A stretch of DNA of 64,000 bases from Candidatus Anderseniibacteriota bacterium (GTDB taxonomy: Bacteria > Patescibacteriota > Andersenbacteria > UBA10190): positions 146,178 to 210,177 of the forward strand of contig JACPWO010000002.1 in assembly GCA_016197005.1 (NCBI GenBank). The letters run 5' to 3'. This document shows, piece by piece, positions 1 to 15,627 of this stretch (its first letter is position 1; every line of letters begins with the position of its first letter). Position numbers and translations under genes: made by a program. The notes beneath the pieces were generated by a model. It was not told where the DNA came from and did not search any database. It saw nothing but the letters and a program-made list of their open reading frames with translations.

Positions 1-231
1 ATTGATACGCAGCATGAAGTAAAAGAGATTATTCTCACTGGTGGCGGCTCTAACTTACCGACGCTGGAACAAGCATTCCTCCGGCATTTTGATAACGTTC
101 ATATGCAGCGCGGAAATCCATGGGTAAACGTAGTAAATGAACACGCCACTCATCGTTTACCAGTAGAACTTACAGATTCAGTACGATATAGTACAGCGCT
201 CGGACTGGCTCTTCGCCCTGTTATTCTATGA
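1..231 (+). CDS. pilM: Type IV pilus assembly protein PilM, C-terminal part (5' truncated by window)
   Basis: Frame 1 reads ...EIILTGGGSNLP...GNPW...STALGLALR*, the actin-like PilM C-terminus; its stop overlaps the next ATG. Confidence 0.85.
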   Translation: MDTQHEVKEIILTGGGSNLPTLEQAFLRHFDNVHMQRGNPWVNVVNEHATHRLPVELTDSVRYSTALGLALRPVIL

Positions 232-770
232 AAGATTTAATTAATCTTATGCCGCCCGCCGCTAAGCAACGGCGCGTGCGATATCTTTATATAAAGCGAG
301 CCAAGGCACTCTACACCACGCTTCTTTTAGTGTTGATTATTATCGGTGCTGGCTATGGTGTTGTATGTGGAGTATTTTGGCAGGCCTCTCGTGACGCGAG
401 CGCTCAGCTTTCCTTGGATTCCAGTAAAACGAGTAATGCCACTCAACAAACCGAGCAGATTAATACTCTCCTAAAAGAGGCAAAGGAGCGACTGTACGAT
501 CAGCGTCCGTGGTTACCAGATGTCGCAGCGGCACTGAAGTTGGTACCAGCTGAAGTCACAATTACCGCTGTCGAAATTGCTCCCGTGGAAATTGCAGTGG
601 AGGACAAAGTTATTGCTATAAGCGGACAATCCAATTCTCGATCAGCTACCCTCCAATTTCAAAAAAATCTTGAGGGTTTGCCCTGGGTAAAAACCGTAGA
701 AGCACCTTTGCAGAATTTTGCTAGTGGACCTGATGTTTCATTCCGATTTACTTTAACGCGCAAGCCATGA
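228..770 (+). CDS. pilN: PilN-like protein
   Basis: N-terminal INLMP motif, one TM helix, ferredoxin-like C-terminal region; follows pilM. Confidence 0.8.
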   Translation: MKDLINLMPPAAKQRRVRYLYIKRAKALYTTLLLVLIIIGAGYGVVCGVFWQASRDASAQLSLDSSKTSNATQQTEQINTLLKEAKERLYDQRPWLPDVAAALKLVPAEVTITAVEIAPVEIAVEDKVIAISGQSNSRSATLQFQKNLEGLPWVKTVEAPLQNFASGPDVSFRFTLTRKP

Positions 771-4244: not shown

Positions 4245-4796
4245 ATGCGGGAAATAAATCTCCTTCCCACCCCTCGCCGCACTTTTCTGCGTCGACAGTG
4301 GATATATGACTCACTGCGGCGTTTTGTGTTTAACATAAATGTCGCTCTGATTATTATGACGGCGGTAGCGCTTGCTACGTTGGCCGGGTTACGTAGCGTT
4401 TCTTTCTTTACCTCAGCTGATGCGGAATCTACTATTCCTGAATATCTAGGAAAGTATCAAGCCACTAAACAAGCAATTGAAGAAAAGAATCGGCTCATTG
4501 CTCAGGCTAGCGCGGCCGACCAAGGTCGAATCATTTGGGGGGATTATATAACCGAGCTTTTAAATGTACTACCGCCCGGCACTCTTGTTGAACGTATTAC
4601 GGCTGATGCGGACCAGGAAGAAATAATGGTCACTGGAGATACGGTAAACCGCAGCTCCTTAACGCTACTGGATGCCCGTATTAAAAGTTTATCGTGGGCG
4701 AAAGAAGTACGTGCGCCACTTACAAACTTACTTGATCGCGAAAACCCAGAGTTTTCCTTCACCATTATTCTGAATAGGAACGCAGCAGAGCCGTAA
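4245..4796 (+). CDS. pilN: PilN-like protein (second copy)
   Basis: INLLP motif, TM, C-terminus resembles 228..770 (W..V.APL.N...F.FT). Confidence 0.8.
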   Translation: MREINLLPTPRRTFLRRQWIYDSLRRFVFNINVALIIMTAVALATLAGLRSVSFFTSADAESTIPEYLGKYQATKQAIEEKNRLIAQASAADQGRIIWGDYITELLNVLPPGTLVERITADADQEEIMVTGDTVNRSSLTLLDARIKSLSWAKEVRAPLTNLLDRENPEFSFTIILNRNAAEP

Positions 4797-4859
4797 TCTC
4801 CCTTTACACGAGAATCCTTTTCTACTACCCTTAAGTCTCTTAGGTAGTAGCTCTTTTTT

Positions 4860-4956
4860 GGGGACGTAGCTCAGTGGGAGAGCGTCAGAGTATTGCTCGT
4901 CTCGCGAGGGGCAATTACAACTCTGAAGGTCGAAGGTTCAAGTCCTTCCGTCTCCA
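4860..4956 (+). tRNA. tRNA-like gene with Ala-type acceptor stem and 25-nt expanded anticodon arm; anticodon undetermined
   Basis: Acceptor GGGGACG/CGTCTCC+A, D arm GCTC/GAGC, anticodon stem TCAGA/TCTGA, variable AGGTC, T arm GAAGG-TTCAAGT-CCTTC; 32 nt between the anticodon-stem strands. Confidence 0.8.
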
Positions 4957-4996
4957 TTTCGCACCCGCTTTGGGTGCTTTTTGTTATACTCATTCT

Positions 4997-5938
4997 ATGG
5001 CTGAACCGATTATCCTTCCTGCAGGCGCAGCAATTGCCATTATTGCCTTCTTGCTGGCTCTACTACCCGCTGGATTCTTTCTGTGGCTATGGTATTTACG
5101 TCGTCGTGACCGCAGTGTCCCGGCGAGCGTTATGGCAGCTGCTTTCGTGAGCGGTCTTTTGCTTATTCCAGCGGCCTTTTGGCTGGAAGAGGGGGGTCAA
5201 AAGATTTGGGCTTTTCTTAGTCCGGCCACCGTTCATTATTTCAGTACCGATACTCTCGCCTTATTTGAATTGCAGGATGCAATTTTACCTGCCATAGCTG
5301 CATTCCTGATTGTAGCCACCGTTGAAGAAGGGCTACGATATATTGTTTTACGGGTGTGGTTCCGCTTTAGCAAAGGCATTGATCAAATATTTGATGGTCT
5401 TATTGTTGGTGTCGGTGTAGGAGTGGGGTTTGCGACACTGGAAAACACACTTTATTTCCTGGATCTTTTCCGAGGTGGTAGTTTTGATACTCTCGTATTC
5501 GTTTTCTTTCTCCGCTTTGCCATTTCAACCTTAGCTCATGTTAGCTTCTCGGGACTGATGGGAGTTTGGTTGGCTAAGAACTCGCTTGAGTTTCTTTCAG
5601 GCAGACGCTACGCCCTGATGGCCTTTTTTATTCCGTGGTTCTTACACGGTCTCTTCGATTGGCTTCTGACAATTGGTATGAGTATGTATGCCGTACTTGT
5701 TTTACTAGCCCCGCTGCTTGTCTTAATCGGTTGGGCAGGGCAGTCCCACATGTTCGTCGTACATAGGCGTAACGGCAAAACATTAGCGGCCGGAGAGGCA
5801 GTAAGTTCTAGAGAAGTACGGGCCGTGAATAAACTTATGCAAACGCAGGATTCACCATGGAATAAATACGCTCCCTGGCTTTCTCGCACCAAAACATATC
5901 AAAAGATGCTAACATTAATACGTGAAGAAGAACTCTAA
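4997..5938 (+). CDS. prsW: PrsW-family intramembrane protease
   Basis: VEEGLRY, GFATLEN, AH and LHGLFD motifs in a multi-TM protein; the upstream ORF extension overlaps the tRNA-like gene, so start placed at 4997. Confidence 0.85.
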   Translation: MAEPIILPAGAAIAIIAFLLALLPAGFFLWLWYLRRRDRSVPASVMAAAFVSGLLLIPAAFWLEEGGQKIWAFLSPATVHYFSTDTLALFELQDAILPAIAAFLIVATVEEGLRYIVLRVWFRFSKGIDQIFDGLIVGVGVGVGFATLENTLYFLDLFRGGSFDTLVFVFFLRFAISTLAHVSFSGLMGVWLAKNSLEFLSGRRYALMAFFIPWFLHGLFDWLLTIGMSMYAVLVLLAPLLVLIGWAGQSHMFVVHRRNGKTLAAGEAVSSREVRAVNKLMQTQDSPWNKYAPWLSRTKTYQKMLTLIREEEL

Positions 5939-15227: not shown

Positions 15228-15627
15228 TGGTGGACACGGCGGGAATTGAACCCGCGTCTGAAACGCGATTACTCAATCTTCTACGCGCGTAGCTGTTCTA
15301 GTGATACTCACCGCAAAGCAGCAGAACAGCAAAGCCTTTGTTGTGAGTGAGATAGTGCAAGTCAACTAATACGTATCTCAGCCGTATCAGTTCAATCCGT
15401 CTAGGTTGACACCGTGATAGTGCGCGACGGATCGCACCAGACGATGGCTATAGGTTTTAAGCTACAGCGAACGCGAACGAAGGGGTGAGTGCAGATGCAA
15501 TCGCCGTCTTCGCGCGGTTAAACAAGTTTGCACGTGACTTGATGAGCTACTGGTATTTACGAGTGTATAACTCTTCACTCGGCGCGCTGATTGTGTAAAA
15601 AACATTCCATCGAAGCCTGTCATGCCC
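15228..15627 (-). ncRNA. ssrA: tmRNA; predicted tag (A)NLFNRAKTAIASALTPSFAFAVA* at 15531..15457
   Basis: 5' GGGCATGACAGGCTTCGA, 3' GCGGGTTCAATTCCCGCCGTGTCCACCA, G3:U70, resume codon GCA, adjacent to smpB. Confidence 0.95.

Follow-up and report, generated by a model that had tools for sequence, protein, structure and literature searches.

A tRNA-shaped RNA gene with alanine identity marks and a hairpin in place of the anticodon loop in a Patescibacteria genome, and its apparently non-decoding relatives

A chromosomal family of RNAs that imitate tRNA-Ala and appear not to decode was recognized by sequence comparison, and it is real, looks selected and appears undescribed. One member lies in the window, the 64,000-nt stretch of DNA analysed here (G000:C4:146178-210177), which belongs to a tiny groundwater bacterium whose genome of 1.04 Mb (94.5% complete) indicates Patescibacteria by its size, gene content and named search neighbours. 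This element is probably a selected non-decoding RNA, and the case that it is charged with alanine is evenly balanced. The tentatively favoured account of the whole is a dispensable non-decoding RNA derived from tRNA-Ala that would receive alanine yet stay away from the ribosome, and that might supply Fem-type/DUF2156 transferases. No published description of such a Patescibacteria family was found in a search of mostly open-access main texts, and supplementary tRNA lists (e.g., that of PMC5389517) could hold members. The features of the locus are collected in Table 1, together with a group of loci from other genomes described below.

Table 1. Coordinates of the RNA gene, its arms and its neighbours in the window, and of Ro60-adjoining loci elsewhere
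Feature	Position	Strand	Remarks
tRNA-shaped RNA gene, 97 nt, Ala identity	4860..4956	+	without anticodon loop or encoded CCA
Acceptor stem, 5' strand	4860..4866	+	G1, G2, G3 (4862), G4; sequence and fold
D arm	4869..4883	+	4-bp stem; loop with G18 G19 G20; sequence
Anticodon arm	4885..4926	+	5-bp stem lengthened to a bulged hairpin of 42 nt in all; 4-nt bulge 4916-4919
T arm	4932..4948	+	G49-C65 A50-U64 A51-U63; predicted weak EF-Tu binding
Acceptor, 3' strand	4949..4957	+	U70 (4953), C71, C72, A73 (4956), U74 (4957)
Intrinsic-terminator-like hairpin and T run	4961..4982	+	directly 3' of the RNA; hairpin 4961-4977
Weak promoter-like box pair, 17-nt spacing	4803..4831	+	28 nt upstream of G1; loose pattern; putative
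8-bp hairpin and T run, probably terminating the ORF upstream	4822..4859	+	by eye; 13-nt loop
PilN-like ORF	4245..4796	+	24% identity, E 6e-9, to window 228-770
prsW-family protease gene	4997..5938	+	downstream; PF13367 E 2e-24; context only
Ro60-adjoining loci	L259:3001-3106, L290:3001-3106, L305:3001-3106, L271:2413-2515, L295:3001-3105

The 97-nt element is real and, as far as the contigs show, no assembly slip. Its letters are identical in four of four DNA runs, with no alternative letters, gaps or joints; the runs come from one study, and two of them may themselves be the source of the window DNA. The Rfam tRNA family RF00005 matches over its full model (59.1 bits, E 3e-10), which agrees with the intact acceptor, D and T arms bearing G3:U70 and A73 that the earlier note had read from the letters. 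The RNA folds as a cloverleaf of -40.8 kcal/mol (z -4.0; 0 of 200 shuffles equal) with no broken pair in any stem, an open acceptor, a 7/5 acceptor branch and a 5-nt variable loop; positions 4860-4866 pair with 4949-4955, setting G3 against U70. In the anticodon arm, TCAGA (4885-4889) and TCTGA (4922-4926) flank 32 nt (4890-4921) that replace the 7-nt loop. Folded alone, the hairpin arm has a z of -3.4, and the prediction, with pair probabilities of 0.96-1.0, consists of 7 bp, a single 4-nt bulge on the 3' side, another 7 bp and, at the tip, 2 bp capped by UCGC (4902-4905). The 32-nt structured arm of the earlier note thus stands, whereas its GCGA tetraloop gives way to the UCGC-closed tip and its several bulges to one.

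Bacterial alanine identity is marked by A73, G2-C71, G3:U70, G4-C69 and G20 (PMC9976931, Table 1), and the window copy carries all five, so that the alanine identity first assigned to it is upheld on the marks listed there. The housekeeping tRNA-Ala genes of the host have C4-G69 and lack G20. The 7-nt loop with U33 and an NGC anticodon that characterizes canonical tRNA-Ala is absent from the element. Normal tRNA-Ala genes do exist elsewhere in the genome, a point on which the earlier note had asked for a check: ARAGORN reports 47 other tRNA genes, including five for alanine and three for valine, and the element is surplus to the normal tRNA-Ala set. Among the 47 Rfam tRNA matches, it is the one long match that ARAGORN leaves uncalled. 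No uninterrupted tRNA-Asn was found by ARAGORN in the host genome; that gene may be split by an intron or unassembled.

The element sits between a PilN-like ORF and prsW, and a further weak PilN match lies at 228-770 of the window. In many relatives a cytidylyltransferase-like gene and prsW adjoin directly, whereas the PilN-like ORF and the RNA intervene here. Terminator-like sites number two in 600 nt against 0.8 expected, so the site 3' of the RNA is weak evidence when taken alone. The terminator scan did not call the hairpin with the 13-nt loop upstream, and the promoter scan found nothing at its threshold, below which the box pair falls.

BLAST of the 97-mer against 40 relatives returned short D- or T-arm pieces only. 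Strict patterns were positive in 2 of 35, 2 of 42 and 2 of 401 genomes, missing most of the members found later by model. Pattern searches recovered the same body with other arms in G045, G023, L267, G439, G493 and six metagenome loci (five distinct). The eleven pattern-found members, window copy included, form alignment A1. In A1, 96.5% of cells pair and 10 of 21 pairs change on both sides; its covariation score is reached by 0 of 500 shuffles, although kinship alone can beat such shuffles. The D stem and G18-G20 are invariant across A1, which is partly fixed by the search pattern. The anticodon stem was unconstrained by the patterns, and in the eleven members 53 of its 55 cells pair, with two-sided changes at five of five pairs. 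The covariance model R1 scores the window copy at 78.2 bits, the top match of the genome, partly by construction.

R1 was run on 79 genomes from the G418 family, 41 from the host's own order and 150 from the phylum, as well as on 30 hrcA loci, 8 of which match. From 52 matches in 37 chosen loci, 13 were dropped (two junk rows, seven canonical tRNAs, two same-body copies whose GGC loop is intact and two odd genes in which a 7-nt loop has U33), leaving 39 non-canonical members from two Patescibacteria families and five metagenome contigs. Their loops measure 2-66 nt, seven of them being shorter than 7 nt, and none of the 39 has a U33-NGC decoding loop, which bears out the non-decoding character suggested earlier. 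Carriers comprise at least 6 of 41 genomes in the own order (among the matches listed, 150 of 308) and 19 of 79 in the family of G418. In a phylum sample of 149 other genomes (best 30 candidates per genome, and so a weak negative), the 29 best loci were canonical except L457 and one gene with an 8-nt loop, and the family therefore looks clustered. R1 found no match at 29 other prsW loci, one of which has almost no upstream DNA. Relatives with a normal 7-nt loop, named in the earlier note as a sign of recent pseudogenization or misassembly, are accordingly lacking at the same locus (0 of 29), but two same-body copies with a 7-nt GGC loop occur at other loci.

With the intron option, ARAGORN, which misses the element by default, calls a tRNA-Val(tac) with a 23-nt intron, and unexplained tRNA introns are described in Lak phages (PMC6784885). 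These observations would suit a tRNA with a short archaeal-style intron or a group I remnant whose splicing would give tRNA-Val(UAC) or some other decoding tRNA, a reading that is extremely unlikely. All eight in-register 25-nt deletions inside the loop yield ACA, ATA or ATT, exactly as the earlier note had computed; 23-nt off-register deletions produce TAC on a shifted stem, which is the ARAGORN call, and no contiguous deletion within the 32-nt loop creates an Ala anticodon (NGC). The single 4-nt bulge does not make a bulge-helix-bulge. The splicing endonuclease PF01974 and RtcB were each found in none of the five genomes searched (the host being 94.5% complete), while the controls were detected. 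The loops of the relatives share neither length nor sequence, and some are below 7 nt, whereas Lak introns are typically identical across copies according to PMC6784885. A normal tRNA-Val(UAC) is present in addition, and a valine decoder with G3:U70 would misread. The archaeal-like mini-intron offered earlier as a second possibility is thus abandoned, and the exclusion of a group I intron holds, given the 32 nt and the lack of any Rfam intron match in the window.

The two same-body copies with a GGC loop share the GGGG acceptor start and the GGGA D loop. One is G000:C3:144377-144449, in an island 3' of an RNA ligase gene in the host genome; the other, with U73, is in G012. The simplest reading of these sequences is an inferred descent of the family from a foreign-type tRNA-Ala that lost its loop. 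The host island (L127:8378-9366, i.e., G000:C3:144377-145365) carries the RNA ligase gene (PF09414) followed by two extra tRNA-Ala genes. Another odd G3:U70 gene (L492, G465:C7:31015-31086) has an acceptor of the native C4-G69 type, C74 and a 9-nt loop, and is perhaps of independent origin.

Copies of this kind would also be expected if the members were spare tRNA-Ala genes from mobile DNA in slow decay, their loops freed from decoding and altered by slippage until the gene is eventually lost. The family is patchy, dispensable and placed at different loci, its scores at the hrcA loci grade down to 26 bits, low-scoring copies with damaged D or T loops occur, and 6 of 39 members have T-stem mismatches. 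Decay is nevertheless unlikely. The unconstrained anticodon stem keeps its pairing with every pair changed on both sides, although this covariation weighs less against decay because different starting tRNAs could explain part of it. Moreover, the long loops fold (mean z -1.84, n=18; 6 of 18 below -1.64; -3.4 in the window copy), and every stem of the window copy is fully paired. The sites 5' of hrcA in the family of G418 (L387-L416) form a hypervariable cassette site with promoter-like boxes and tRNA-like genes at all stages of divergence, along with other structured stretches and small helical ORFs without a Pfam family.

Among the 39 members, pair 3:70 is G-U in 26, G-C in 7, A-U in 5 and unclear or a gap in 1; 2:71 is G-C in 36 and 4:69 is G-C in 35, while 5:68 has turned over. 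A73 is found in 31 and absent in 8, and G1-C72 is changed in 10. The members outside the pattern-found set still lean to G3:U70 (15 of 28; 12 of the 16 at 60 bits or more), a lean to be read with the training of R1 on G3:U70 genes. Because of this leaning, all 128 Rfam tRNA hits of three carrier genomes were surveyed, and by reading of the flagged rows eight genes proved odd, four with G-U, three with G-C and one with A-U; each of the three genomes has its three normal tRNA-Ala. In viruses, long-armed, well-paired tRNA bodies have all acceptor types, with G-U at 3:70 in 3 of 101 (among the matches listed, which include intron tRNAs of eukaryotic viruses), and the idea that alanine enrichment is a property of all long-armed tRNA bodies was rejected for viruses on this count.

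A somewhat less likely reading is a mimic that works by shape alone, in which the acceptor helix and the D/T elbow are kept, charging is incidental and G3:U70 is ancestral. Its role might be that of a processing or stabilising module (3' of 16S rRNA, 5' of small variable ORFs) or of a decoy for proteins or toxins that read the top half of tRNA. Where G3:U70 was lost, a Watson-Crick pair took its place in 12 of 13 members, so the helix outlives the identity. Tandem arrays combine alanine and non-alanine acceptors, although certain partners in these arrays that carry other acceptors are perhaps not homologous. Members lie shortly 3' of 16S rRNA at three loci at least, others stand before small ORFs without a Pfam family, and promoter-like boxes directly precede 11 of 39 (loose pattern, without a control). 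The prevalence of U74, the viral bodies with every acceptor type and the T5 RNA2 of the same build without alanine marks point the same way. Against the shape-only reading, a terminator-like hairpin comes immediately after the window copy and several other members, which leaves nothing downstream to process; G3:U70 and G4-C69 persist where 1:72, 2:71 or 5:68 has changed; and matches to the arm are not overrepresented in its own genome. A mobile repeat or antisense cargo in the arm was likewise rejected, no 13-mer of the arm occurring elsewhere in the genome and the counts of 10-12-mers lying within the shuffled range.

In the T stem, the pair A51-U63 costs +1.1 kcal/mol in Table 2 of PMC3239215, and the Schrader table predicts a T-stem ddG of +0.7 kcal/mol for the window copy. 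Within the family, 51-63 is A-U in 18, G-C in 8 and C-G in 0 of 39 members, and the mean predicted ddG is +0.49 (33 of 39 computable, six having mismatches). Among 47 distinct canonical tRNA-Ala, the pair is G-C or C-G in 45, with a mean of -0.27 and a maximum of +0.1, and a reading of canonical tRNA-Ala by eye gave G-C or C-G in 66 of 66. By the table, then, the window copy has the weak T stem of a Fem-dedicated tRNA in place of the strong EF-Tu pair of canonical tRNA-Ala, and weak EF-Tu binding is predicted for the family. The contrast does not represent independent events, since the genes are kin, and the weak T stem may have been inherited from one ancestor.

At the 3' end, CCA is encoded in none of the 41 genes examined. 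The discriminator is followed by U74 in 32 of the 39 members, whereas 46 of the 47 ARAGORN tRNA genes of the host genome have C74; the one without it is the tRNA-Ala(GGC) on the island, which shares the body type of the family. CCA maturation is therefore not assured, a doubt softened by the U74 on the sole detected tRNA-Thr(GGU) of one genome. Across tRNA genes in these Patescibacteria, C74 is nearly always encoded and the whole CCA mostly is not (C74 in 46 of 47 genes in the host, and in 66 of 70 and 40 of 47 in relatives; A4 and A5 loci). A motif search of the host genome gave five ORFs of the HxHxDH type, which are RNase Z candidates by motif only. The contrast of U74 and C74 suggests that the 3' maturation of tRNA in Patescibacteria follows a rule as yet unstudied.

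For the favoured reading as an alanine carrier, the following pathway is proposed. The RNA would form a short transcription unit of its own; tRNA-type trimming and CCA addition by the host's nucleotidyltransferase would follow, and AlaRS, reading the acceptor end only, would then alanylate it. With its weak T stem it would bind EF-Tu poorly and be useless in the 30S decoding site, and the outcome would be a pool of Ala-tRNA outside translation. The likeliest consumers would be the cell-envelope transferases that depend on aminoacyl-tRNA. A charged non-decoding alanine carrier is the best reading because AlaRS and Weissella FemX act on the acceptor stem alone, FemX requiring C71 and C72 (PMC2175331), because a tRNA-Gly of S. 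aureus with weak EF-Tu binding (A51-U63) is diverted to wall synthesis according to PMC4052509, and because the host genome encodes the enzyme set: AlaRS, a CCA-type nucleotidyltransferase, two FemAB-family proteins and two proteins with the DUF2156 domain (PF09924). The AlaRS gene is at G000:C3:108023-109366, and the FemAB genes are at C1:54978-56006 and C3:88850-89869.

AlaRS and the CCA-type enzyme are present in five of five carriers tested, and FemAB matches in seven of eight. The alanine-carrier reading is weakened because FemAB also occurs in five of five relatives where no family member was found, PF09924 was found in none of four other carriers, no member stands beside a Fem gene among the ORFs read at member loci, a third of the members lost the identity, damaged copies occur and the family is patchy. 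A role as donor for Fem/DUF2156 in particular is accordingly rather unlikely. About as unlikely is the full proposal that these are dedicated alanine carriers without an anticodon, which AlaRS charges, EF-Tu avoids and anticodon nucleases cannot cut, which are set aside for Fem/DUF2156, and whose freed arm serves as a scaffold for arbitrary hairpins. If true, Patescibacteria would hold an undescribed family of anticodon-free alanine carriers. How bacteria reserve aminoacyl-tRNA for non-ribosomal enzymes is largely open according to PMC4052509, and a chromosomal tRNA with alanine identity but no anticodon would be an extreme solution. Even if shape alone matters, the minimal genomes of Patescibacteria preserve RNAs with a tRNA shape; annotation tools overlook these or wrongly label them intron-bearing tRNA-Val, tRNA-Phe, tRNA-Leu or tRNA-Asp.

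Other long-armed G3:U70 genes were observed outside this family. In Armatimonadota and Chloroflexia, G3:U70 bodies whose acceptor is open and whose anticodon arm is long adjoin Ro60 (TROVE) genes in five of five loci (Table 1), often with further long tRNA-like genes, and Rfam calls them only tRNA. Their arms appear to contain the two strands of the Ro-binding helix in reversed order, and by sequence these genes are possibly un-permuted Y RNAs, of which no description was found in the literature search. Chryseobacterium has a conserved long-armed G3:U70 gene (L252:3001-3098, L307:3001-3105, L254, L258, L261, L262, L270 and L293) that lies directly 3' of rtcB in the two loci scanned, and similar arms occur in the viral contigs L038 and L244. 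Long-armed G3:U70 genes stand near IrrE/M78 peptidase genes in L257, L278, L281 and L294, and in L257, L278, L266 and L302 the arm is complementary to the sequence just 3' of the gene. In Planctomycetota, L269:3001-3084 is a long-armed G3:U70 gene directly 5' of genes for an Acetyltransf_6 (GNAT) protein and a polysaccharide deacetylase, which makes it a candidate for a physically linked alanine donor.

Among known systems, the tRNA-like-domain-only tmRNA of phage DS6A (PMC4131195, PMC11915505) shares the alanine-type top half, the lack of an anticodon loop and the lack of a message. An RNA of that type, binding SmpB and tuning or inhibiting trans-translation, would fit the alanine identity of the element, and in G012 the copy closely precedes an ORF whose sequence reads as smpB. 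However, as described in those papers the DS6A RNA derives from tmRNA and lacks an anticodon stem-loop, whereas in the element the D stem is genuine, with 4 bp, and an anticodon stem stands at the site that SmpB would take. Rfam assigns it to tRNA and not to tmRNA, and the host has a separate tmRNA at 15228-15627 of the window (minus strand, 121.9 bits by Rfam, missed by ARAGORN), which makes this reading very unlikely. The Y RNA YrlA (PMC4201824; bioRxiv 10.1101/312249) likewise mimics tRNA, conserving the D and T arms and lacking an anticodon loop. Its described form is a circular permutation in which the acceptor is closed, and it neighbours Ro60, whereas the element has an open acceptor and no TROVE (Ro60) gene was found in four carriers. 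The allo-tRNAs and irregular tRNA polycistrons of PMC5389517 also occur in arrays, some with G3:U70 and some charged but unused in translation. As reported there, they have an 8/4 or 9/3 branch, a long variable arm and an anticodon, in contrast to the 7/5 branch and short variable loop of the element, which has no anticodon. Identity with YrlA, a tRNA-like-domain-only tmRNA, an allo-tRNA or an intron-bearing tRNA was thus rejected, since the element fails the defining test of each.

Two systems come closer. Phage T5 RNA1, RNA2 and RNA3 are annotated as 'tRNA-like stable RNA with unknown functions' (AY543070), and RNA2 (125 nt) is a tRNA body in which a long hairpin replaces the anticodon loop, as in the element. 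It belongs to a phage, lies within a tRNA cluster and lacks alanine identity, and with no sequence relation evident the likeness is one of build only. The non-proteinogenic tRNA-Gly of S. aureus (Giannouli et al. 2009, via PMC4052509) is also an extra tRNA with weak EF-Tu pairs that is proposed to feed Fem enzymes. As summarized in PMC4052509, it is a glycine tRNA with a normal 7-nt loop that has lost G18G19, whereas the element has alanine marks and keeps G18G19 but has lost the loop; the former is tied to Fem by proposal, and for the latter no tie to a Fem gene was found. By analogy, the element would work most like the non-proteinogenic tRNA-Gly and is built like T5 RNA2, while it belongs to neither.
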